This document shows, piece after piece, positions 281 through 35,880 of a DNA stretch of 47,393 nucleotides. Source of the DNA: Candidatus Kuenenbacteria bacterium (GTDB lineage Bacteria; Patescibacteriota; Patescibacteriia; UBA2196; GWA2-42-15); NCBI GenBank assembly GCA_012798565.1, contig JAAZMX010000040.1:1-47393 (forward strand). Reading direction: 5' to 3'. The position numbers and the translations under genes were made by a program. The notes beneath the pieces were generated by a model, which was not told the DNA's origin, made no database searches, and saw only the letters and a program-made list of their open reading frames with translations. Each line of letters begins with the position of its first letter. The first letter of the stretch is position 1.

Positions 281-601
281 ATGGTTAACGACAAAGAGTT
301 CTTGGAATACGTTGTCAAAGCACTCGTTGATCACCCGGAAAAAGTATCCGTGGACAGAAAAGTCGATGAAATGGGAGTTCTTCTAACTCTCAATCTCGCC
401 CCAGAAGATATGGGTTATGTCATTGGCCGCAAGGGCCAAAACGCCAAAGCCGTGCGCACTCTCTTGCGCTTGGTTGGCGCCAGAAACAACGCCCACGTCA
501 ATCTGAAAATCAATGAGCCAGAAGGCGGTCGCCGCTCCATGAGCGCTCCTCGCGACGAGGAAATGACCGACACCTCCGCGGTTGATGACCTGAAGATCTA
601 A
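281..601 (+). CDS. KH-domain RNA-binding protein (UPF0109/YlqC-like) with a charged C-terminal tail
   Basis: The translation contains the VIGRKGQNAKAVRTLL GxxG KH motif. The gene sits immediately upstream of trmD, as in the conserved rpsP-KH-rimM-trmD neighbourhood. Confidence 0.8.
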   Translation: MVNDKEFLEYVVKALVDHPEKVSVDRKVDEMGVLLTLNLAPEDMGYVIGRKGQNAKAVRTLLRLVGARNNAHVNLKINEPEGGRRSMSAPRDEEMTDTSAVDDLKI

Positions 602-679
602 TTTTTCCTTATAAAAGAACCGTGCTACAATTGTGGTGCGGTTCTTTAATTTATTATAAACGCTTATAATAAATAAGCT

Positions 680-806
680 CCAAGTTCCAAGAAACAATTT
701 CCAAATAAATCCAAAATCCAAAACTCAAATAGCAAGCATTCTTTGTAATTTATAATTTGGACTTTGAGATTTATTTGGAAATTGGAAATTGTATCTTGGA
801 AATTTA
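680..806. repeat. Imperfect AT-rich inverted repeat (long hairpin) built from TTGGAAA/GGAAATT-type heptamers
   Basis: The left arm CAATTTCCAAATAAATCCAAAATCCAAAACTCAAA pairs with the right arm TTTGGACTTTGAGATTTATTTGGAAATTGGAAATTG around a loop of about 25 nt. Intergenic between the KH gene and trmD. Confidence 0.7.
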
Positions 807-1690: not shown

Positions 1691-2296
1691 ATGTCTCCTG
1701 TTGTCAATCGCGAACGTACGCTCGTCATTCTCAAGCCAGACGCGGTCCAGCGCGCCATGATCGGCGAAGTCATCAAACGCTTTGAACAGACCGGCCTCAA
1801 GATGACGGCTATTAAAATTATGATGGCCAAAGAAGAAGTTCTCTGGGAACATTATCATAAAGACGATAAGTGGTTTTTGGAAAAAGGCACCATGCTGGTT
1901 GGCAAGATGAAAGATAAAGGCCTGACCCCGGAAAAAGAACCAATTGAATATGGCAAAGACATTGTGCGCCAACTAGTGGAGTTTATGACCGCCGGTCCGG
2001 TCGTGCCGATGATCTTTGAAGGCAATCAGGCCACGGCCGTGGTGAAAAAAATTACCGGCGGCACCGAACCAGCCACCTCTGACGTGGGCACGATCCGCGG
2101 CGATTACACCATTGATTCCTATGACTTGGCCAACCTGTCCGGCCGGGCCGTCAGAAATTTGGTGCACTGTTCCGAGTCGCCAGCCGAAGCAGAGCGTGAA
2201 ATAAAACTCTGGTTTAATGAAACGGAAATGGTTGGTTACAATTTGGCACATGACAAGATTCTCTACGATGTGAATCTGGATGGGATTAAAGAATAG
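1691..2296 (+). CDS. ndk: Nucleoside diphosphate kinase (long form with an internal insertion)
   Basis: ERTLVILKPDAVQR..., GTIRGD and NLVHCSES (the NxxHGSD region). At 201 aa it is longer than the usual ~140-150 aa. Confidence 0.9.
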   Translation: MSPVVNRERTLVILKPDAVQRAMIGEVIKRFEQTGLKMTAIKIMMAKEEVLWEHYHKDDKWFLEKGTMLVGKMKDKGLTPEKEPIEYGKDIVRQLVEFMTAGPVVPMIFEGNQATAVVKKITGGTEPATSDVGTIRGDYTIDSYDLANLSGRAVRNLVHCSESPAEAEREIKLWFNETEMVGYNLAHDKILYDVNLDGIKE

Positions 2297-2323: not shown

Positions 2324-3017
2324 GTAGGGGTTCAATATTTTGAACCCCTACCTTTTTTATAATAAAATAAAATATGAATCCGCGAAACATCAAATCCAAT
2401 AGAAAATCAATTCGTTTGCCCCAATACGATTATGCCGGCGCAGGTTATTATTTTGTCACCACCTGCGCCCATGAACGGCAAAATTTGTTTGGAAATATCA
2501 GACAAGAAATAATGTATTTAAATCCATTGGGACAGGCGGCAAAAATATGTTGGCAAAATATACCCCGACATTATCCGGAAATAAAATTAGATAATTTTAT
2601 TATCATGCCAAATCATTTGCATGGAATTTTAATATTTGGTAATAATGTAGGGGCTCAAAACCTTGAGCCCGACAATTCAGAAAACATGGTTCAATTTATT
2701 GAATCAAATAATTTAAAAAACAGGGCTCAAAATATTGAGCCCCTACCAAAAACAAATGCCTATCAACATATTATTTCGGGTTCCATCGGGTCGGTTGTCC
2801 GCGGTTTTAAAATTGGGGTGACCAAATGGGCGAAAACACATAATTACAATATCCCTGTTTGGCAACGCAATTATTATGAACACATTATTCGCGATGAGAA
2901 AGATTATGAAAATATTTGGCAATATATAGAATACAATCCAGCCAAGTGGGATTGGGACAGAAACAACCCCAAAAATTTTTAAGAATCTCGTTGGGGCTCA
3001 ATATTTTGAGCCCCAAC
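2324..3017 (+). mobile_element. REP/RAYT unit: Y1 (HUH) transposase gene flanked by REP-like palindromes
   Basis: GTAGGGGTTCAATATTTTGAACCCCTAC at 2324-2351 and GTTGGGGCTCAATATTTTGAGCCCCAAC at 2990-3017 bracket the ORF. Two related palindromes lie inside it at 2647-2670 and 2723-2746. Confidence 0.7.
2374..2982 (+). CDS. REP-associated tyrosine transposase (RAYT, IS200/IS605 Y1 HUH family)
   Basis: YFVTTC..., the HUH motif PNHLHGILIF, and the C-terminal WQRNYYEHIIRDEKDYENIWQYIEYNPAKW tyrosine motif. Confidence 0.85.
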   Translation: MNPRNIKSNRKSIRLPQYDYAGAGYYFVTTCAHERQNLFGNIRQEIMYLNPLGQAAKICWQNIPRHYPEIKLDNFIIMPNHLHGILIFGNNVGAQNLEPDNSENMVQFIESNNLKNRAQNIEPLPKTNAYQHIISGSIGSVVRGFKIGVTKWAKTHNYNIPVWQRNYYEHIIRDEKDYENIWQYIEYNPAKWDWDRNNPKNF

Positions 3018-3040
3018 AAATATTTTTTCCAAAACAAAAA

Positions 3041-3107
3041 CCCGTAGAAAAAGAGATTGGATTTTCGTTTGGTTTCCTTTGATCTCCTTTCTACGGGCTC
3101 ATTTTTT
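3041..3107 (+). terminator. Hairpin plus T-run downstream of the RAYT gene
   Basis: CCCGTAGAAAAAGAGAT (3041-3057) pairs with ATCTCCTTTCTACGGG (3082-3097) and is followed by CTCATTTTTTCC. The ~24-nt loop is large for an intrinsic terminator. Confidence 0.4.
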
Positions 3108-3303
3108 CCTCCCGTTTTTTTGTTTTTTTATTTTTCTTTTTTTATACAACCTACCCGTGGTGAGCCGACGTGTGACAAAAATTGTCGGCCCACCAGTACA
3201 AGGTAGAGCTAGAGAGAGGGCTGTGTCGGAGGGGTGGGTAAGTCGCTCGCGAGCTTGGCCCAAAAGATTCCCTCTAGTAAAAAGCTCGCAAGCGACGAAA
3301 CTT

Positions 3304-4104
3304 TTATTTTTCCGCCCCGGCCTCCAGGTGAACCGGGTGAAATTCCTCCATGATAACGCGTGCCGCCGATGGGATCTGCCCCTTGGCGACAATTTTCTTC
3401 CCGGTGACACATCCGGCCTCGACCCCTAGACGAAGGCCGAGGAAGTTCGCCGGCAACGGCCCGCAGATCTGGTATTCGCCAGGGCCGGTAAACGAAACTT
3501 TCTCCGGTGTATCGCCGACTGAACGATAAATTAGGAGGTACCACTGTTGGCCGGCGCTACATTCAACCGTGACGTATGGGATCATTCCAGTTAATGACCC
3601 ACCGCCCAAAGCAAAGGACGTGCCAGGGAATTGACCCTCCTTGTTCGGCGAACATCCTTGGTCGCCGTAGCTAATATTGCCGGACCAGAGAATGACAACC
3701 TTGGCCGGTGCCGGTTCAGGCACTGTCATGGAAATCGCCACTGAGCCATTGCCACCGTTGGACGTTACCGGAATGTTCCCGGTATATGTGTTGGGTGACA
3801 AGATACCGCGATCGACAGTGACCGTGACCGTGCTGGTATTGGTGCCCGACGTTTTGTTAATGGTCAGCCAGGCAATCGATTCACTCGCGTTCCAATTGAG
3901 GTCACCATTGCCCGAGTTGGAGATCGTAAAGGTTTTCACCGTTTCCGTCATGCCGAAATCGAGAGAATCAGGGGCCAAAAATAACACCGGACTTTCCACC
4001 GACTCGGCCTTAATCCCACTGTGGCTCATCGGGTCGCGCCCACAAGAGGCCAGCCCGAGAACCACCAGGGTGGTCAACAAAAGATAAAAAAACCGATTTT
4101 TCAC
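3304..4104 (-). CDS. Predicted lipoprotein with an Ig-like (BACON/ASH-type) domain and a Cys-rich C-terminal domain
   Basis: GTG start preceded by AGGAGG (4110-4115). Lipobox LGLASC. DLNWNASESIAWLTINKTSGTNTSTVTVTVD pattern. The segment is locally GC-elevated. Confidence 0.7.
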   Translation of the reverse strand: MKNRFFYLLLTTLVVLGLASCGRDPMSHSGIKAESVESPVLFLAPDSLDFGMTETVKTFTISNSGNGDLNWNASESIAWLTINKTSGTNTSTVTVTVDRGILSPNTYTGNIPVTSNGGNGSVAISMTVPEPAPAKVVILWSGNISYGDQGCSPNKEGQFPGTSFALGGGSLTGMIPYVTVECSAGQQWYLLIYRSVGDTPEKVSFTGPGEYQICGPLPANFLGLRLGVEAGCVTGKKIVAKGQIPSAARVIMEEFHPVHLEAGAEK

Positions 4105-4131
4105 GATATCCTCCTGGCCCGATTGGGCCGG

Positions 4132-5373
4132 TTAAAAAATATTTTTCACAAGTTTTCCGGTTTTAATTAGGTCGAGGTTGATCTGCCACGCTTGATTTGA
4201 CTCGCTATTTTTTATATCCGGAATAACCAGTCGTCGATCATCGCGCCGACCGGAGGCTACCAAATATTGGACATCGAGAGGCCCAACAAAAAGATGTCCG
4301 CCAACACATGGCCCCTTGAACTCCTGCTTATAATCTTTGTAGTTTGAGTCAAGTGGGGCGTTAACTACATCGGCCCAATAAAACCATCCGGCCGAAATAC
4401 CGAAACCAAGAAAATTTTTAAAATTGTAGCGCACGATTCCCACAAGGCTGCCGGTTTCGGTAAAATCATGCTTAATGGAATTCTGGCCGACAGTACCAGC
4501 CAGCGAAAACAAAAAACCAACACTGTCGCTGTGCCCCCAGGTAACACCCAAAAACGCAGTCGGGCCAGTATAGTGTCCGAACTGTTGGCCGATGCCCAAC
4601 GAGATTTCATTAGGGGCCAATACCTTAAGAGTTGTTCCTATAGAGTCTGTCTCTGCCCCCGATAGAATACCCCTATTGCTGCTATCCGGCGCATAAGTAA
4701 CTATTCCGATGCCGGCCTCCGTTGCCATGACTCGAGAGAAAAAACTCTCATCGGTTTCTTCATAATCGAAGTAAACCGTTCTTTCTTCGGCACCAGTTAC
4801 TTTTCCGAGTTTACAGTTCAGCCCATATAAATCAGCTGCCTTTTTGGCGCGGGTGTTCGCAAGATAGATATTTTTCTCTTCGCTGGCACCACCTTTTAAG
4901 TCGGCGGTACCAGTAACCGTGCCATTAAAACTCGACTCACTGTTCACGGACAAAAAGCTGTCTATCGTCACCTTGGTTGTTTGCCAACCCTTTATTTCTT
5001 TTGGGTTGGTACGCCCCAGGCGAAAGGTATCAGGCAAAGAAACGTGGAGTCTTTTTCTTTTTCCAACTCCAATCGTTATTTTACCTGCTGCCACAACTGT
5101 TGTGTCGCCATATTCACGAGCTTGCAACACATAAGTCGTGGTTTTTACCGGTGCTACCTCATGAGTTATTCCCCGGATGGTATCGCCATTGCAGGTTACA
5201 ATGTACTTATCGCCCGGCAGGATCATTTTAATTCTGACTACCTGCCCAGGCTCGGCCACTAAACGATCAGCCAGAATTACGGCCTGCGTTTTTTTCTGTC
5301 CAAATACCGGCGCGGACAGGAGCGCCATGGCCAGAATGGCCACCACCAACGAAACAAACATGTTCTTTTTCAT
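4132..5373 (-). CDS. Secreted protein: Ig-like N domain, OmpA_C-like motif, beta-strand-rich C-terminal region ending in Phe
   Basis: Signal peptide MKKNMFVSLVVAILAMALLSAPVFG with an SD GGAGG at 5380-5384. VTGTADLKGGASEEKNIYLANTRAKKAADLY resembles the GhTD..G...N..LS..RA motif. The C-terminus has alternating strands ending ...KLVKNIF. Confidence 0.7.
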   Translation of the reverse strand: MKKNMFVSLVVAILAMALLSAPVFGQKKTQAVILADRLVAEPGQVVRIKMILPGDKYIVTCNGDTIRGITHEVAPVKTTTYVLQAREYGDTTVVAAGKITIGVGKRKRLHVSLPDTFRLGRTNPKEIKGWQTTKVTIDSFLSVNSESSFNGTVTGTADLKGGASEEKNIYLANTRAKKAADLYGLNCKLGKVTGAEERTVYFDYEETDESFFSRVMATEAGIGIVTYAPDSSNRGILSGAETDSIGTTLKVLAPNEISLGIGQQFGHYTGPTAFLGVTWGHSDSVGFLFSLAGTVGQNSIKHDFTETGSLVGIVRYNFKNFLGFGISAGWFYWADVVNAPLDSNYKDYKQEFKGPCVGGHLFVGPLDVQYLVASGRRDDRRLVIPDIKNSESNQAWQINLDLIKTGKLVKNIF

Positions 5374-5532
5374 TGAGCACCTCCCAAATAAATGAGTGAA
5401 ACAGTGAATTAGAATTTTCTTACTTAAAATTTTTTCCTTTTTCCTTTCCTTTATATTTAATTTTCAATTTGCTTTCAATTATTCTTCCACCTCCAGCCCC
5501 AACAGGGGACAGAGGCGGGGGAACAAGGGGGA

Positions 5533-5571
5533 AAGTTGATAAAGTTAATTAAGTTAAAAAAGTTAATAAAG
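5533..5571. repeat. Tandem 9-mer repeat (AAGTTNANN x4)
   Basis: AAGTTGATA AAGTTAATT AAGTTAAAA AAGTTAATA AAG, read directly from the sequence. Confidence 0.6.
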
Positions 5572-5592
5572 AGGGAAGGGATACAGAATACC

Positions 5593-5620
5593 GAATTATG
5601 AATTATGAATAATGAATTAT
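5593..5620. repeat. Tandem heptamer repeat (GAATTAT x4)
   Basis: GAATTAT GAATTAT GAATAAT GAATTAT, read directly from the sequence. Confidence 0.6.
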
Positions 5621-5876
5621 GGTGGAAATTATGATTAGCGTAAGAATATTGGCCCAAAAGGCTCACGCCCAAAGACATTCTGGACAGGTTACTTTAGCAC
5701 AAATTAAGTGATTTTTATTAATTAAAATTCTTTTTAACCTAACATATTATTGTAATTTTGTCAATAGAAGGCTAAAATAAGCCAATTTGGGGTAATAAAA
5801 AACTCCCCCAAAGGGAGCCATTAAAAAGATAAAAATGTAAATATCAAAGTGTAAAATGACAGTTAAAAATGCAAAA

Positions 5877-6248
5877 TTATTTTTTGCCCCTCATGGTCAA
5901 GATACTGGAAGCTAAAATATTGGCTATTTCCTTTAGTTCGCTTATCAACCACTCATTCTCGGTCTTATCACTTTTATTTGTATCTTTTATCAGTGCCAAC
6001 CAAACCTTTGATTCGTTGGCCGATTTCAGAGCATGAGTAAAAAAATTGATAAAATCTTTCTTGGAGCTGGCTGAATTAGCCTCAATATAATTGGCAATAA
6101 CACTGGTCCCGCTACGCAGGAGTTGCTTACCCATCACTTCGTTTACAGAGGATTTTGGCAGTCGATCTATAAATCTGACCAGCCTTAAAACAAAACCATA
6201 CAATCTTTTTTTAAATTCATTTTTGAATTTTGCATTGTCATTTTCCAT
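5877..6248 (-). CDS. Four-helix-bundle protein (23S rRNA intervening-sequence protein / Avd-like family)
   Basis: GKQLLRSGTSVIANYIEANSASSKKDFINFFTHALKSANESKVWL matches the family signature. The ATG at 6248 (MENDNAKF...) is preferred over the longer track ORF. Confidence 0.85.
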   Translation of the reverse strand: MENDNAKFKNEFKKRLYGFVLRLVRFIDRLPKSSVNEVMGKQLLRSGTSVIANYIEANSASSKKDFINFFTHALKSANESKVWLALIKDTNKSDKTENEWLISELKEIANILASSILTMRGKK

Positions 6249-6345
6249 TTTGATTTTTGATATTTTATTTTGTTCCCGTAAATCACCTGCCCGCCAATCG
6301 CTAGCGCTCAAGGCGCTTGCAGGCGGGTAAATCGTAAATCCTGAA

Positions 6346-7569: not shown

Positions 7570-7611
7570 AAGCGCATTAAATTTATTATGATAATAAAAA
7601 CATATTAATTT

Positions 7612-8047
7612 AAATTCAAAATCCTAATTTCCAATCAATTTCAAAGCTTAAAATCCCAATCATTTATTATTAATAGCGGAAAAGATCAAGGTTAATTCAT
7701 GTGCTTCTTGCCATAATTTTCGGCAAATTTCAACCTGTTTGGGATTGGCGGCCGCTGTCATGTGTAGCCAATGAGTTGACTCTTTGGCTTCTTTCTTGCA
7801 AATACCAATTTTATGTTTAAAATCTTTCTTTGACTCAGCGCAGTCTGCTTCCATATAATTAGCACCCACGCTGGTCGCTGACCTGACGAGTTGACCGATT
7901 AAGGGTTTGTTGATTGTATTTTCTGGTACTTCTTTTAAAAACAAAATTATATCTTTACCAAACTGAGCGGTTCGTTCAGCCAAATCATACTTTTTACTAT
8001 TAGAGTTTTGGACTTTGTTTGACATTGGAAATTTGGATTTGAAATTT
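7612..8047 (-). repeat. 24-nt inverted-repeat arms bracketing the four-helix-bundle ORF (IVS-like cassette)
   Basis: AAATTCAAAATCCTAATTTCCAAT (7612-7635) matches the reverse complement of 8024-8047 (AAATTTCAAATCCAAATTTCCAAT) at 21 of 24 positions. The arms start at the ORF's start codon and 25 nt past its stop. Confidence 0.6.
7660..8025 (-). CDS. Four-helix-bundle protein (23S rRNA intervening-sequence protein family)
   Basis: GQLVRSATSVGANYMEADCAESKKDFKHKIGICKKEAKESTHWL family signature. Confidence 0.9.
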   Translation of the reverse strand: MSNKVQNSNSKKYDLAERTAQFGKDIILFLKEVPENTINKPLIGQLVRSATSVGANYMEADCAESKKDFKHKIGICKKEAKESTHWLHMTAAANPKQVEICRKLWQEAHELTLIFSAINNK

Positions 8048-8052
8048 TACCT

Positions 8053-10376: not shown

Positions 10377-10487
10377 AATTAAAATCCAAAATCCAAATTT
10401 CCAATCAAATCCAAAGCTCTAAACTATAAATCAATATTTTTGGCTTTGAAATTTGAGCTTGATTGGAAATTAGAGCTTTGACATTTA
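10377..10487. repeat. ORF-less long hairpin of the heptamer family, homologous to the left flank of the 7612-8047 cassette
   Basis: AAAATCCAAAATCCAAATTTCCAATCAAATCCAAAGCTCTAAA pairs with CTTTGAAATTTGAGCTTGATTGGAAATTAGAGCTTTGA. The left arm closely resembles 7614-7652. Confidence 0.7.
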
Positions 10488-22258: not shown

Positions 22259-23608
22259 TTAAATTATTTTTTTATTTTCTTTTATCAGCTTCTTGTATTC
22301 CTTCCCTTTCTCTCGGTAATCCGAATAAAAATCATAACTAGACGCGGCTGGCGAGAGGGCTACTGCTTCTCCCGGTTTGGTATATTTAAACGCCGCCGCG
22401 ACCGTCTGCCGCATATTTTTCACCGGGATAATTTTTGCCGCCGTTTTTATTCTCCTCAGTTCCCGCGCCATGGTTTCGCCAGTATGTGGCCAGCAGATCA
22501 CTGTTCGGATTTTTGCTTTTTTGATTTCTCTTGCCAAGTTAGCATAATTCAATCCTCGATCAAAACCGCCAACGATTAGTGTTTGCAAGTTTTTGTCCCG
22601 TAAAGTCTTAACCGCCGCAAGCGTTGACTCTGGCGTGGTAGAAAGCACATCATTATAAAAGTTTATTCCGTGGAATTTTCCCACCAACTCCAGCCGATGT
22701 TCCAATGACTGAAATTTCGCAAGCGCTTTTTTAATGTCGGCATCCCCGATTTTCCAATACTTAGCCACGGCCATTGCGCCAGCGATATTTTGTTGATTGT
22801 GTTCCCCGAGCAGATGCGAGATTGCCACGTCGCCTCGCAGTAGCGAGCCTCCTCGCAATGACAGGGAAGGATAACCAATCGCTTTGGTGGCTGATTGTTT
22901 TTTGATAAAGTCAGCCACTCGTTTAAAATTTTGATTATAAACTACTGCCCCGCCTTTTTTCAAATGTCGAACAATATTCATCTTGGCTTGAAAGTAATTG
23001 GTGAGACTGCCATGATAATTCAAATGTTCCGGATAAAAGCTGGTCATCACCGCCATGTCCAATTTTTCTGTCAAAGTATCCAATTGGTAAGAAGATAATT
23101 CAGCTACGAAAATTGTCTGTTTGGAATCTTTATTAATATAGTCCAAAAACGGTTTGCCAATATTGCCAACCAAGACAGTCTTTTTGCCGGCCTGCTTCAA
23201 TATCTCATAAATCAAACTAGCCGTGGTGCTCTTGCCCTTGGTACCGGTCACGCCGACCACCCGGCCTTGGAGATTGGCGAGGAAAATATTCAAATTAGTA
23301 GTCACCCATGTTCCTTGCTGAGCCAGTTTTTTAGTTAGCTTGTCCGGCAGTTTGATACCTGATGTTTTGATGATGACCTCAAATTGCTCCAGATTTTTCA
23401 GATAATTCTGGCCCAAATTCAAGACCAGATTCTTGTCTTTTTTGAGCCAGTTTCTTTCCGTCGGGCCGAACTGCGCCAAGGTATTCTGATCAGCCACGCC
23501 AATCAATTGTTTCGGATAATATTTTCGCAAATATCGTAAAGACGATTGGCCTTCCCGGCCAAAGCCCAAGATTAAGATTTTTTTATTTTTGAGTTCTCCA
23601 GTTTTCAT
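22259..23608 (-). CDS. murD: UDP-N-acetylmuramoyl-L-alanine--glutamate ligase (MurD family)
   Basis: ILGFGREGQS N-terminal Rossmann fold, the GVTGTKGKSTT P-loop, and LLGEHNQQNIAGAMAVA ... EHRLE. Confidence 0.9.
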   Translation of the reverse strand: MKTGELKNKKILILGFGREGQSSLRYLRKYYPKQLIGVADQNTLAQFGPTERNWLKKDKNLVLNLGQNYLKNLEQFEVIIKTSGIKLPDKLTKKLAQQGTWVTTNLNIFLANLQGRVVGVTGTKGKSTTASLIYEILKQAGKKTVLVGNIGKPFLDYINKDSKQTIFVAELSSYQLDTLTEKLDMAVMTSFYPEHLNYHGSLTNYFQAKMNIVRHLKKGGAVVYNQNFKRVADFIKKQSATKAIGYPSLSLRGGSLLRGDVAISHLLGEHNQQNIAGAMAVAKYWKIGDADIKKALAKFQSLEHRLELVGKFHGINFYNDVLSTTPESTLAAVKTLRDKNLQTLIVGGFDRGLNYANLAREIKKAKIRTVICWPHTGETMARELRRIKTAAKIIPVKNMRQTVAAAFKYTKPGEAVALSPAASSYDFYSDYREKGKEYKKLIKENKKII

Positions 23609-23650
23609 ATTCCCAGCTTAACAAAAATACCGGCCAAAGTAAAATTATGG

Positions 23651-23689
23651 CAGAAAAAAAGAAAAGCCGTCAGTTGTTACTAACGGCTT
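23651..23689 (-). terminator. Rho-independent terminator after the small membrane ORF
   Basis: On the minus strand: GAAGCCGTTAGTAACAACTGACGGCTT followed by TTCTTTTTTTC. Confidence 0.55.
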
Positions 23690-23955
23690 CATTTCGGCCA
23701 TAAAGAAATAAGGCTGACCATCAGGGCTACGGCGATGAAGATTATGAGACGGATATTGAAGTCCCTATCTCTCAATCTTCTATCCATAAACCAAGGTGAC
23801 CGCTCTCTGATCGCGGCTGTAGCAATCAACGCGCAGGCATTCAGCCCGACTATCACCCACTTCCAGTCGGATTGCAAATTCATTGCCAAACTCAATCCGA
23901 TCAATGCCCCGGCCATCGCCCCTAACCGCAACATTCCCAACAGGAATTTTCTCAC
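23689..23955 (-). CDS. Small (88 aa) three-TM membrane protein, unknown function
   Basis: GTG start preceded by AGGAG at 6-nt spacing. Two sampled 60-nt lines are about 50% G+C, against about 33% in a sampled murD line. Confidence 0.5.
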   Translation of the reverse strand: MRKFLLGMLRLGAMAGALIGLSLAMNLQSDWKWVIVGLNACALIATAAIRERSPWFMDRRLRDRDFNIRLIIFIAVALMVSLISLWPK

Positions 23956-23971
23956 TTTTTACTCCTATCTC

Positions 23972-25192
23972 CTATATAATATTCAATTTATTTATTTCCT
24001 CTCCAAAATTTTCCTTGGCCAGCTTCAGCGCTCTTTTCATCTCCGCCGGCGTACCCACGCATTCAAACGGCTTGATATTTTTTTGGCCCAGCAATTCTTG
24101 AAAGAGTGGTTTTAGTTTCCGGTCAGCATACAGGTTTTTGTTAAAAATATCAAGTAGCTGTTTTTTTTGTAAATGAGCCGAGAGCATCGTCCAGACAAAA
24201 ACGCACTTGGCGCATTCGCCGCACCACTTGCTTTGGGCTTTGGCTGTAAATCTGAAATTTTTATTGCAGGAAGAAAATTTATAAAAATACTGGGGATAAT
24301 GAACAAACATGCCGGCGATTTGCAGTTCGTTAAATTTTCTGAGCTCGCTATAATACCTGATACTCGGGGTGATAAATTTTCGCGCGTAAGCTTGAAACAT
24401 TTTTTCAAATTCTAAAGATTTACTCCACTGGTGATTGATTATTGTACCGCGATATTTGACATTGCCATAATTGGCGCTCTTTTCATTGCCGAGCGCTATT
24501 TCCTTATCCTCATTAATAATCGCCACGGCCAAAGTCAAAAATGCCAGATAGGCGGAAAAGGGGATATGGCCGTTGTAGACACCTTTTTTCTGGTTGAGTG
24601 CTATTAACTCCGGCGCGATTTGCCGCCGGACAGCGATCAGTTTTTCACCGCTAACCTGGGCTGTGTCAATGATAATCTGGTTAGTTTTTTGTTGATTAGT
24701 TAAGTTAAACAAACTAATTTTTTTGCCGCGTGCTTTCAATCTCTCTGCCACGACAATAGAATCTTTACCCCCGCCGATTGGCACCAAAGATTCATTCCGC
24801 GCTTTAATCTTAATAGCCTTTACTTTGTGATTTTTGTCATAGGGAAAATTCACCAAGCCGCGAAAATCGAGTTTATTTTGATAAAAGAATTCTCCCAGAC
24901 CTTTGGTATAAACCTTATCCCAAAAAGTCGCTTGTTCTTTGTTTAGTTTATATTTACCCAAATCAATTACTCGTGGGCAATAAGCTTTATAATAACTGAT
25001 ACCCGCCATTAAAAATAAATTAAATAGCGCCGAATCCAAAGCAGCCCACTGGTTTTTGCTTAATTTATTTTTGACCGCCGGCAAGACCAGTTTCTCCCGA
25101 AGGCGATGTTCGCCACTGGCATAATCAAACAACGCAACCCCAGTCTTGGGGTTGAATTGATATTTTTTAAATTGAAAAGTCTTTTCTGTCAT
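23972..25192 (-). CDS. PP-loop (adenine-nucleotide alpha-hydrolase superfamily) protein with a C-terminal Cys cluster; candidate MurL-like epimerase
   Basis: PIGGGKDSIVVAERL resembles the SGGxDS PP-loop. The C-terminal SSCNKN...WCGECAKC is a QueC-like cysteine cluster. The gene lies one small ORF away from murD. Confidence 0.5.
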   Translation of the reverse strand: MTEKTFQFKKYQFNPKTGVALFDYASGEHRLREKLVLPAVKNKLSKNQWAALDSALFNLFLMAGISYYKAYCPRVIDLGKYKLNKEQATFWDKVYTKGLGEFFYQNKLDFRGLVNFPYDKNHKVKAIKIKARNESLVPIGGGKDSIVVAERLKARGKKISLFNLTNQQKTNQIIIDTAQVSGEKLIAVRRQIAPELIALNQKKGVYNGHIPFSAYLAFLTLAVAIINEDKEIALGNEKSANYGNVKYRGTIINHQWSKSLEFEKMFQAYARKFITPSIRYYSELRKFNELQIAGMFVHYPQYFYKFSSCNKNFRFTAKAQSKWCGECAKCVFVWTMLSAHLQKKQLLDIFNKNLYADRKLKPLFQELLGQKNIKPFECVGTPAEMKRALKLAKENFGEEINKLNII

Positions 25193-31950: not shown

Positions 31951-33000
31951 CTAAAATAATTTTTTGATTTGATTTAGCCCTCTCATCACTCTCATCATAT
32001 TATACCATCCCGGCCTTAATACATAATCCCACGTCCCCAAAAAGCGATATTCTGTCCCGCCAAAACCTTTTTTAAATCGGGTAATGCCGGCCCAGCTAGC
32101 ATTGTTTTCATTAGCGCCCCACAAGTCATAGAGCTGATAACCGTCACGCTTGGCGTCTTTGATTACCGTCCACTGTAAAAGATAATTGGCCATCAATTCT
32201 CGCCCTTCATTGGCCGAAGCGCCATGCAGATAAGTGGCTGTATTACCAAAATAAATTGCCAGAATTGTCGCCAACGGTTTGCCCTGATGCTCGGCAAAAT
32301 AAAGTTTTAATTTAATATTCTTATCGCCCGCTCCAAAATAGCCGATCAGCTTTTCATAATAATTCTTCTCATAAATTTTAATCCCATTTCTCTTGGCCGT
32401 CTCTTCTGACAACTTATAAAATGTATTGATTGGAAATTGGAAATTGGAAATTGGAAATTTTATTTTTATCTCCTTCTTTTCCGCCAGTCTGATATTATAT
32501 CTAGTTTTTGGATGCATCGCTTCTAGTAATTCTTCCTCGCTTTTGGTCAAATCAAGCAAAATAGTGCTTTCCGGTTCTTGACTATGGGTTAATATTTTAG
32601 GCGCCTGGAAACCGAGACGTTTAATAAATCCCGTCACGTATTCTTTGTATTCGTAAGGCGGGCAAGTGCGCAAAAATATTTTATCACCGACTTCACTTTG
32701 TAATTTTTTTAAAATTTCTCCATAAGCCAAGGCTCTTTTGTCCGAATAATCTTTGCGCCACACCAATCCGCGCGGGCAATATAAATAGTGTTGATTAAAG
32801 GGGAGAGATTTTTTTATGCCTTGAGCTACTATCCGGATTTCCTCGTCCTCTCTGACCACCCAGCGAGCCAATTCATAACCCAGAGCCTGCTTATTAAATT
32901 CGCCCCAATCCCAAGCTTGCAAAAAACTAGCCGGGCTGGTATTTTCGGCCACAAACTTGTCCCATTCGTCTTTATTTTGATAATTAGTGAGGATTTCCAT
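31951..33000 (-). CDS. FemAB-family peptidoglycan interpeptide-bridge aminoacyltransferase
   Basis: SFLQAWDWGEF, KTRYNIRLAEKK and GASANEGRELMANYLLQW motifs. Confidence 0.85.
   Translation of the reverse strand: MEILTNYQNKDEWDKFVAENTSPASFLQAWDWGEFNKQALGYELARWVVREDEEIRIVAQGIKKSLPFNQHYLYCPRGLVWRKDYSDKRALAYGEILKKLQSEVGDKIFLRTCPPYEYKEYVTGFIKRLGFQAPKILTHSQEPESTILLDLTKSEEELLEAMHPKTRYNIRLAEKKEIKIKFPISNFQFPINTFYKLSEETAKRNGIKIYEKNYYEKLIGYFGAGDKNIKLKLYFAEHQGKPLATILAIYFGNTATYLHGASANEGRELMANYLLQWTVIKDAKRDGYQLYDLWGANENNASWAGITRFKKGFGGTEYRFLGTWDYVLRPGWYNMMRVMRGLNQIKKLF
32431..32458. repeat. Four tandem TGGAAAT heptamers inside the FemAB coding sequence
   Basis: TGGAAAT x4, read directly. On the minus strand it encodes ...FPISNFQFPIN.... 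This is the same motif as the intergenic hairpin arms. Confidence 0.8.
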
Positions 33001-35774: not shown

Positions 35775-35880
35775 TAATCAATTTTATAATTTTTAATTTT
35801 TAAATAAATCTTAAATCTAAATTTTTAAACATTAAAAATTAGAGTTTATTTAAAAATTAAAAATTGGAAATTAAAAATTA
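35775..35880. repeat. AT-only long hairpin (AATTTTT heptamers), same architecture as the TTGGAAA hairpins
   Basis: AATTTTTAATTTTTAAATAAATCTTAA on the left matches the reverse complement of the right arm, AATTTTTAATTTTTAAATAAACTCTAA. Confidence 0.65.

Follow-up and report, generated by a model that had tools for sequence, protein, structure and literature searches.

The stretch analysed here (the window; 47,393 nt, contig JAAZMX010000040.1) carries on its minus strand two tandem open reading frames (ORFs), designated geneA (413 aa, ATG start) and geneB (266 aa, GTG start), which are 27 nt apart and form a single operon; the pair is referred to below as the island. The geneA product is modular and predicted to be secreted, with a putative signal peptide, an immunoglobulin (Ig)-like domain, a divergent OmpA_C-like domain, a linker and a predicted 8-stranded β-barrel; geneB codes for a lipoprotein. 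The two are the only genes of the window preceded by a Shine-Dalgarno (SD) core, the pair is found at one chromosomal site in three related genomes, and its alleles are mosaics. On balance, it is considered more likely than not that the island is a long-resident, recombining and probably highly expressed surface module, in which a tethered geneA protein with a lipid-embedded barrel is paired with a geneB adhesin. The positions of all features are listed in Table 1. An earlier reading of the window, made without database searches (the sequence-only reading), had described two co-directional minus-strand genes, an SD core before each, a signal peptide and an Ig-like domain in geneA, and a lipobox, a BACON-type segment and a Cys-rich C-terminal domain in geneB. 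Most of that description holds up. The ORFs, the SD cores with their spacings (6 nt and 5 nt) and the lipobox were confirmed by direct reading, and the Ig-like domain and the BACON segment are borne out by the model and the profile match given below.

For the analysis of translation signals, 41 non-overlapping ORF-based genes were defined in the window and an SD core was sought 3-12 nt upstream of each start. A core was found for geneA and geneB only (2/41); the other 39 genes had not even a 4-nt core, in agreement with the claim of the sequence-only reading that about 40 genes lacked one. Start codons outside the island were preceded by A/T-rich sequence. With 45 occurrences of GGAGG in the window, both strands counted, a core would fall at the proper distance by chance with a probability of about 0.005 per gene. 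Two relatives were compared, L001 (the NCBI metagenome-assembled genome, MAG, GCA_964566315.1) and L013 (a 13-kb Logan contig). Cores were present in 2 of 19 genes of L001 and in 2 of 9 genes of L013, each time in the island pair. For cores of at least 5 nt, the total was 0/63 among neighbour genes (0/39 in the window, 0/17 in L001 and 0/7 in L013) against 6/6 among island genes, and the lone exception at 4 nt was one neighbour gene of L013 with GAGG. All geneA alleles kept AGGAGG or GGAGG, and all geneB alleles kept a core of 4-6 nt (AGGAGG, GGAGG or AGGAG; GGAG in L010 and L011). The SDs were kept across alleles that are 23-58% identical, and selection within the lineage is therefore implied. 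A survey found the anti-SD motif missing from the 16S rRNA in about half of Parcubacteria (PMC9297842), and the near-absence of SDs outside the island fits this published loss in part of the group.

The site of the pair was the same in the window, L001 and L013, namely after a gene for a PDZ protease. A 23S_rRNA_IVP gene (IVP) lies between the protease gene and the pair in the window and L001, and the pair precedes ndk in both loci that reach that far (the window and L001). The order in L001 (Der, Pth, ATPase, PGA_cap, QueH, three small genes, PDZ protease, IVP, geneA and geneB, NDK, TrmD, IVP, KH) equals that of the window, and L013 had a matching arrangement as far as geneB. The flanking proteins were 50-91% identical to those of L001 (60-91% without ndk) and 47-75% identical to those of L013; geneA, at 36% and 32%, respectively, was well below its flanks. 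Compared with L001, the NDK gene beside the island (50%) and the more distant gene for a KhpA-like KH-domain protein (60%) stood apart from most flanks (67-91%).

Word-index searches with geneA returned 2-3 homologues, and a full hidden Markov model scan of 1.84 billion representative proteins returned nine matches at E <= 1e-3, made up of seven family members and two generic Ig-repeat proteins. No homologue of geneA was found in GTDB species genomes, JGI metagenomes (searched with the protein and with the leader DNA), IMG/VR, INPHARED phages or PLSDB plasmids. The family members with readable wider context (window, L001 and L013) all belong to this lineage, and the conserved leader was shared wherever upstream sequence was read. 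As judged from these collections, the family is very small and restricted to one lineage of Patescibacteria. It is known from metagenomes alone, and all functional claims made here are predictions. A donor or mobile-element origin was rejected because no homologue was found outside the lineage in any collection searched, and phage cargo was rejected because there were no PHROG matches.

The alleles were mosaic in both genes. The N-terminal half of the window geneA was closest to P0002 (52%), whose C-terminal half is unrelated, and its C-terminal half was closest to P0004 (57%), whose N-terminal half is not detectably similar. P0002 and P0005 were 71% identical in the C-terminal half and 28% in the N-terminal half. 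Two barrel types occur in the family and both end in Phe; homology between them was rejected (hhalign probability 0.4%). In the geneB alleles a constant lipobox is followed by BACON, PEGA-like or PKD modules that are exchanged, and in L004 geneA was 95% identical, yet its partner geneB diverged right after residue 36. The first codons of the signal peptide were conserved among most alleles. L005 and L013, both from run ERR1876141, show that two related strains or species are present in one sample. Their alleles of geneA and geneB are very different, one being of the window type and the other, P0008, having a different N-terminal region; such co-occurring divergent alleles are consistent with diversifying selection at the locus. 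A diversity-generating retroelement (DGR) had been suggested by the neighbouring Avd-like 23S_rRNA_IVP genes and was rejected, as neither template and variable repeats nor a reverse transcriptase were found in the window; no repeat in the window involves the island.

About 390 nt of non-coding sequence (5374-5765, minus strand), made up of the leader and a promoter-like site, lie upstream of geneA. The site has a counterpart in L001 (TTGACA, 17 nt, TAAGGT); it was not listed by a generic promoter scan of the window, and its assignment as the operon promoter is putative. The last ~150 nt of the leader, from the hairpin to the start codon, were nearly invariant across nine loci; the coding sequences were 23-58% identical. 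Further upstream, the loci split into two or three sequence groups. The leader was read as non-coding because indels between loci are not multiples of three, and a small ORF within it (5475-5678) was ruled out because these indels break its frame. No family was matched by Rfam scans of the leader at gathering or E-value thresholds, and an NiCo match (E 0.069) was discarded because it falls inside coding sequence. A riboswitch or other known RNA was rejected on the negative scans and on the ordinary fold of the whole leader (z -0.25). The conserved hairpin had an RNAalifold consensus energy of -24.7 kcal/mol, and its pairing was kept in seven alleles, among which no compensatory double changes were seen; it occurs once only in the window. 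Its arms, with CCGCCTC and GGAGGTGG, resemble anti-SD and SD sequences.

Downstream of geneB, the region 3030-3303 had a folding energy of -97.5 kcal/mol, against -65.4 +/- 4.3 kcal/mol for shuffled sequences (z -7.5), and the structured 3' untranslated region (UTR) might serve to stabilise the mRNA or represent a small RNA not recognised so far. The terminator stem and T-run were also present in L001. Surface-layer genes with very high expression typically combine a promoter of this kind with a long leader, SDs and a structured 3' UTR.

Scans of geneA with Pfam, NCBIfam and PHROG gave no match (Pfam and NCBIfam at E <= 1). The full-length protein was modelled with AlphaFold2 (AF2) on an alignment of eight sequences, with a mean predicted local distance difference test score (pLDDT) of 62. 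The model begins with a hydrophobic helix (2-19); residues 32-112 form an Ig-like sandwich and residues 113-218 an alpha/beta domain, and a disordered stretch (219-252) links these to eight long strands (256-405). The N-terminal hydrophobic segment was read as a signal peptide without a dedicated predictor. The family profile also matched the Ig-repeat proteins P0009 and P0010.

In OmpA_C domains, the Asp and Arg of the motif TD...N..LS..RA contact diaminopimelate (AbOmpA structures 3TD3 and 3TD4). The window motif GTADLKG...NIYLANTRA carries both of these positions, and D158, N168 and R175 were invariant in 8/8 divergent family members, among 13 invariant columns overall. When the family profile was compared with sequences of the Protein Data Bank (PDB), five of the seven best matches were OmpA-like (OprF-C, Pal twice, PA0833-PD and TssL1; E 0.075-1.3); the best of these was OprF-C (E 0.075), and the alignments to OprF-C and Pal centre on G-x-a-D...N-x-x-L-x-x-R-A. 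In the model, residues 113-218 (pLDDT 63-82) consist of helices (H) and strands (E) in the order H130-143, E149-158, H165-183, E193-195, E199-206 and H208-218; the fold of OmpA_C domains is beta-alpha-beta-alpha-beta-beta. Foldseek matches of the full-length model, with E values between 0.02 and 0.1, included MotB and the AbOmpA structures 3td4 and 3td3 (for these two, TMt 0.53 and rmsd 4.1-4.5). PF00691 matched neither geneA (E <= 1) nor any other family member in the Pfam and NCBIfam scans. The evidence for an OmpA_C-like domain is weak but convergent, and the motif that the sequence-only reading had noted is only partly confirmed, by its invariant residues and by several weak matches but not by any Pfam or NCBIfam family.

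The C-terminal region was also modelled alone, on five sequences (pLDDT 79.6, predicted template modelling score, pTM, 0.72). In this model eight strands, each 10-17 residues long, precede a short helix at the C-terminus, and eight strands were predicted in the full-length model as well. All of the 50 top Foldseek matches in the PDB were transmembrane β-barrels (E from 7e-4; TM-scores 0.35-0.55), namely PagL, NspA, OmpX, OmpA, Ail, PagP, OmpW, OprF-N and designed transmembrane barrels, and the full-length model matched the same barrels in addition to OmpA-like domains. In a viral structure library (BFVD), the top matches (ranks 1-9) were phage 'outer membrane protein' barrels or OmpA-like, and none was a soluble barrel. 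One face of the strands is rich in F, L, V, I, Y and W, with 15 aromatics, and on the opposite face Gly and small polar residues (G/T/N/D/S) prevail, a pattern that points to small membrane barrels rather than to soluble barrels of the lipocalin type. At the sequence level, PF13505 (OMP_b-brl) gave a match to the family member P0006 (E 0.0041; 17.7 bits, below the 28.7-bit cut-off) and none to the window geneA protein, and no outer-membrane protein was matched by the barrel profile among PDB sequences. The terminal Phe was present in 8/8 members, across the two unrelated types of C-terminal domain. With a β-signal defined as a terminal aromatic residue and hydrophobic residues at -3 and -5, the ends ELFF, NFIF, IFMF and YYAF of other members conform; KNIF of the window has Asn at -3. 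The sequence-only reading had described a barrel-like C-terminal region with an aromatic terminus; the eight predicted strands, the all-barrel fold matches (at TM-scores of 0.35-0.55) and the Phe in 8/8 members agree with this, but the tail itself was modelled as a helix.

The geneB product has the lipobox VVLGLAS-C21 (LGLASC), read from the sequence without a dedicated predictor, and a lipobox-like Cys was present in all geneB alleles (LASC, VAGC, GLAC, MAAC or IVGC). The match to BACON_2 (PF19190) spans residues 41-127 and profile positions 2-92 of 94, with E 1.4e-12 and a score of 47.8 bits where the cut-off is 25. The C-terminal domain (about 139 aa, four Cys) matched no known family; it shares 35% identity with its counterpart in the L010 partner. 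In the public protein collection, geneB is represented only by a truncated 165-aa call from the same contig (P0003, from an internal TTG start), which misses the lipobox and the BACON domain. A word-index search with geneB returned this truncated call alone, and its relatives surfaced solely as neighbours of geneA homologues. In L005, geneB is called from the GTG start, and the contig ends after 59 codons.

Table 1. Positions of the island, its signals and domains, and of nearby features of the window
Feature	Position	Strand	Remarks
geneA	4132-5373	-	Secreted modular protein (predicted), 413 aa: signal peptide, Ig-like, OmpA_C-like, linker, predicted 8-stranded barrel
geneA residues 32-112	5038-5280	-	Ig-like beta-sandwich; AF2, pLDDT 63-75
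geneA residues 113-218	4720-5037	-	Divergent OmpA_C-like alpha/beta domain (putative); GTADLKG...N..LA..RA
geneA residues 256-405	4159-4608	-	Predicted 8-stranded antiparallel transmembrane-type beta-barrel
geneA C-terminal tail	4135-4158	-	...GKLVKNIF, terminal Phe; short helix in domain model
geneA SD core	5380-5384	-	GGAGG, 6 nt before ATG
geneB	3304-4104	-	Lipoprotein, 266 aa
geneB lipobox	4042-4059	-	Cys21
geneB BACON_2	3724-3984	-	
geneB C-terminal domain	3307-3723	-	4 Cys
geneB SD core	4110-4115	-	AGGAGG, 5 nt before GTG
Putative promoter	5736-5764	-	TTGACA + 17-nt spacer + TGt-TAGGTT; read from sequence
Operon leader (5' UTR)	5374-5735	-	Long, conserved, non-coding; about 355 nt
Leader hairpin	5479-5526	-	Conserved, 19 bp; TTGTTCC..CCGCCTCTG.CCCC / GGGG.CTGGAGGTGG..GGAAGAA; RNAalifold
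geneB 3' UTR	3099-3303	-	GC-rich, strongly structured, two long hairpins
Intrinsic terminator of operon	3031-3098	-	GCCCGTAGAAAGGAG...CTTTTTCTACGGG + TTTTTGTTTT; sequence and folding
RAYT-like gene	2374-2982	+	Beside the island
REP-like palindromes	2324-2351, 2719-2746, 2990-3017		GTAGGGGTTCAATATTTTGAACCCCTAC type; one inside the RAYT-like gene
RAYT/REP unit	2324-3017	+	
NDK gene	1691-2296	+	Beside the island
KhpA-like KH-domain gene	383-721	-	
23S_rRNA_IVP genes	5877-6311, 7660-8025	-	Flank the PDZ protease gene
MurL-like epimerase and Mur ligase genes	22259-25192	-	
A/T-rich intergenic repeats	756-805, 1555-1611, 7607-7653, 8000-8049, 10377-10485, 32420-32474, 35783-35879	both orientations	Units TTGGAAATT / AATTTCCAA

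The host was placed by protein similarity. The Der GTPase of the window was 84% identical to that of one MAG and 76% to that of a 'Patescibacteria group bacterium' MAG, and by this measure the host is a patescibacterium. Other genes of the window code for TrmD, NDK, QueH, PGA_cap, a P-type ATPase, Pth, an LCP protein, a signal peptidase, HisRS, a Mur ligase, a MurL-like epimerase, FemAB and several 23S_rRNA_IVP proteins. No genes for outer-membrane biogenesis were found in the 47-kb window, and no BamA, Lol or Lpt genes in the window or in the visible parts of L001 and L013. Patescibacteria, or the candidate phyla radiation (CPR), are treated as monoderm in the literature and placed within Terrabacteria, and the few imaged CPR cells have been described as monoderm; a barrel of the outer-membrane type is unexpected in such a lineage. 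The monoderm appearance of the surroundings in the sequence-only reading holds: the closest genomes are Patescibacteria, and LCP, FemAB, PGA_cap and Mur genes are present. The MurL-like UDP-MurNAc-L-Ala-L-Glu epimerase beside the Mur ligase (NF041275, E 1e-105, below the equivalog cut-off) suggests that the pair could provide the alternative MurD2/MurL route to the D-Glu of peptidoglycan. Avd-like four-helix-bundle genes of the 23S_rRNA_IVP type lie between housekeeping genes, three in the window and two in L001 (9189-9578 and 14217-14597). The A/T-rich repeats found between many window genes are possibly promoter- or terminator-like elements.

The sequence-only reading had put the G+C content of the island at roughly 50-62% and had suggested that it might be a recent acquisition. 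The window as a whole has 43.3% G+C. The value for geneB (0.547, z 3.4) was the highest among the 41 genes (mean of the others 0.436 +/- 0.032), with z 5.2 at second codon positions (GC2), 3.2 at third positions (GC3) and 1.6 at fourfold sites, and its 3' UTR was likewise GC-rich. For geneA (0.468, z 1.0) the value was within the normal range (GC2 z 2.5, fourfold sites z -0.9) and GC3 equalled the host mean (z 0.0). The elevation is thus real for geneB and its 3' UTR but not for geneA, for which the earlier figure was an overestimate; the rise in geneA mostly reflects a protein rich in Gly, Ala, Ser, Thr and Pro. The 2.3-kb island was the top tetranucleotide outlier, modestly so (0.029 against a median of 0.017; 0.0235 for the next tetranucleotide window overlapping neither the island nor the RAYT-like gene). 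Neither island gene was among the eight strongest outliers in codon usage. The gene beside the island resembles those of REP-associated tyrosine transposases (RAYT; NF047646, E 9e-16, below cut-off; no Pfam match) and is accompanied by palindromes of the repetitive extragenic (REP) type. Because the RAYT/REP unit is missing from the syntenic L001 locus, it was taken as an independent, unrelated insertion and rejected as the vehicle of the island.

A recent horizontal acquisition from a Gram-negative donor, with SDs and G+C content retained, perhaps together with the RAYT/REP unit and with little function in the host, would account for the composition of geneB, the tetranucleotide signal, the SDs found here only, the adjoining RAYT-like gene and palindromes, and a fold that is typical of diderms. 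Such an origin is nevertheless very unlikely and already largely refuted, also by the test that the sequence-only reading itself had set, in that one locus is shared by three genomes whose flanks have diverged to 47-91% identity, most of the GC excess lies at codon position 2 and reflects amino-acid content, geneA has the GC3 of the host, SDs are kept across alleles 23-58% identical, the RAYT-like gene is missing from L001, and no homologue was found outside the lineage in any of the collections (1.84 billion proteins, GTDB, JGI, IMG/VR, phages and plasmids). That the island came from a co-occurring diderm or phage and was joined to a Patescibacteria contig during assembly or binning is extremely improbable. 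The locus does deviate in G+C and translation signals, and Pfam lists BACON_2 as a viral domain; but the junctions of the island, either both of them or the one towards the protease gene, recur in independent assemblies (the window, GCA_964566315.1, the two Logan contigs L005 and L013 of run ERR1876141, and contigs from JGI and ENA for P0007), and no PHROG, IMG/VR or INPHARED match was obtained.

The nature of the barrel leaves further alternatives. In one that is unlikely, the eight C-terminal strands would form a barrel or sandwich that is soluble or embedded in the wall (lipocalin- or avidin-like), and geneA would be an ordinary wall-bound secreted protein of a monoderm. No outer membrane is expected in Patescibacteria, the TM-scores to outer-membrane proteins are below 0.5-0.55, the C-terminus was modelled as a helix and no Pfam match to outer-membrane proteins reached threshold; yet no soluble barrel was among the 50 best PDB matches or the viral ranks 1-9, the face with 15 aromatics and L, V and I, opposite a face of Gly and small polar residues, corresponds to a lipid-facing exterior around a tight polar core, and both barrel types, though unrelated, keep the terminal Phe. 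A lineage with an outer lipid layer of its own, in which geneA were a peptidoglycan tether of the OmpM/OmpA type and geneB a lipoprotein of the outer leaflet or periplasm, would suit the order of a wall binder followed by a barrel, as in the OmpM/SlpA tethers of diderm Terrabacteria, together with the invariant, putatively peptidoglycan-binding motif and expression signals appropriate to a major envelope protein. Against it stand the lack of BamA, Lol and Lpt in the 47-kb window and in visible L001 and L013, the confinement of the family to a very small clade and the monoderm description of imaged CPR cells, and it is judged distinctly unlikely.

The surface module favoured above would work as follows. 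The signal peptide would direct geneA to the Sec pathway, the divergent OmpA_C-like domain would bind peptidoglycan via the invariant Asp158, Asn168 and Arg175, and the C-terminal 8-stranded amphipathic barrel would be embedded in a lipid layer beyond the wall. geneB, held by a lipid anchor, would carry adhesin domains of the Ig type that can be exchanged (BACON in the window, PEGA-like or PKD in other alleles). The near-consensus -35 element, the long leader with its hairpin, the strong SDs, the structured 3' UTR and the terminator would make the operon similar to those of major surface or S-layer genes. The conserved leader, signal-peptide codons and terminator act as recombination anchors, between which N-terminal domains, barrels and lipoprotein domains are swapped, a pattern that would be expected of a surface structure diversifying under host or phage selection. 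The gene anatomy, the confinement of SDs to the island, the synteny, the mosaicism and the restriction to one lineage are shown by the comparisons above; from them we infer that geneA binds peptidoglycan and inserts into a membrane, that expression is high and that the module has a part in tethering the envelope or in contact with a host.

Several points weigh against this account. The structural evidence is all predicted, from shallow alignments of 5-8 sequences; the Foldseek TM-scores are only 0.35-0.55, with an rmsd of about 7 A; and the OmpA-like sequence matches are individually non-significant (E >= 0.075), with no Pfam match for the window protein. The last 11 residues were modelled as a helix, and KLVKNIF, with its Asn at -3, fits a canonical β-signal only partly. 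No genes of the β-barrel assembly machinery (BAM), Lol or lipopolysaccharide were seen within the about 47 kb of genome visible. High expression is inferred from signals alone, and should the lineage lack the 16S anti-SD, the SD argument would need a different explanation.

The sequence-only reading had offered, as the other possibility beside acquisition, that the locus encodes an unusual envelope component, and this idea survives and is strengthened on the basis of structure prediction. Its boldest form, a genuine lipid-embedded barrel of the outer-membrane protein type in an organism without outer membrane or BAM, or with a cryptic outer lipid layer of its own, is entertained only tentatively and is rather unlikely. 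In a trans-insertion version, geneA may be held on the peptidoglycan of the epibiont by its OmpA-like domain while the barrel enters the host's outer membrane from its external side, so that both cells are stapled together; this would fit the unusual domain order because the barrel termini and the wall-binding domain would face the epibiont. If either version were true, these would be the only genes of an otherwise SD-free genome that rely on SD-led initiation. The locus also offers a natural test of whether SD-led initiation persists for a few special genes in anti-SD-poor lineages. Patescibacteria make up a large share of bacterial diversity and are treated as monoderm epibionts whose mechanisms of host attachment are mostly unexplained. 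A peptidoglycan-tethered barrel protein that is conserved in position and hypervariable in sequence would be a clonable candidate for an attachment structure or for an unseen envelope layer, and the locus is relevant to the loss or re-invention of such tethers to an outer membrane among Terrabacteria.

Among known systems, OmpA and OprF (PF13505 or PF01389 with PF00691) share with geneA both functional modules, i.e. the (predicted) barrel and the OmpA_C-like domain, and an aromatic C-terminus. geneA differs from them in its reversed order, with the barrel C-terminal, in its extra N-terminal Ig-like domain, in the lack of any Pfam or NCBIfam match at threshold, in a terminal segment modelled as a helix and in a host lineage regarded as monoderm. 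The OmpM/SlpA proteins of diderm Terrabacteria consist of an N-terminal S-layer homology (SLH) wall-binding domain followed by a C-terminal porin barrel, and geneA appears to follow the same logic and order, with the wall binder first and the barrel last. A long-leader, high-expression organisation has been reported for genes of the slpA type, which the geneA operon resembles. However, geneA has no SLH domain (no Pfam match) and an OmpA_C-like domain instead, the porin barrel of OmpM is larger than the eight strands predicted here, and with no detectable homology the likeness is one of functional analogy only. The small barrels Lom, Ail, OmpX and Opa share the 8-stranded meander with the predicted barrel of geneA, and phage barrels were the top matches in BFVD; those proteins are single-domain and belong to diderm hosts, they have no sequence similarity to geneA, and the locus has no phage context.

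The BACON, PKD and PEGA lipoproteins of Bacteroidota polysaccharide utilization loci resemble geneB in the lipobox and BACON_2, with PKD and PEGA-like domains in allelic partners, and in being operon-paired with a barrel protein. In contrast to those loci, the barrel of geneA is not of the SusC/TonB type, the 4-Cys domain of geneB is unmatched and the host is not a member of Bacteroidota. As in cassette loci for S-layers, pilins and capsules, divergent mosaic modules are bracketed here by a conserved promoter, leader, signal-peptide codons and terminator; unlike those, the window has no silent cassettes, invertible segments, DGR repeats or site-specific recombinase, and the variation is between genomes, not within one. 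The components would thus be of known kinds (an OmpA-like tether, a small barrel of the outer-membrane protein type and a BACON lipoprotein), and what appears to be new is the lineage, the domain order and the restriction of SDs to this one locus.

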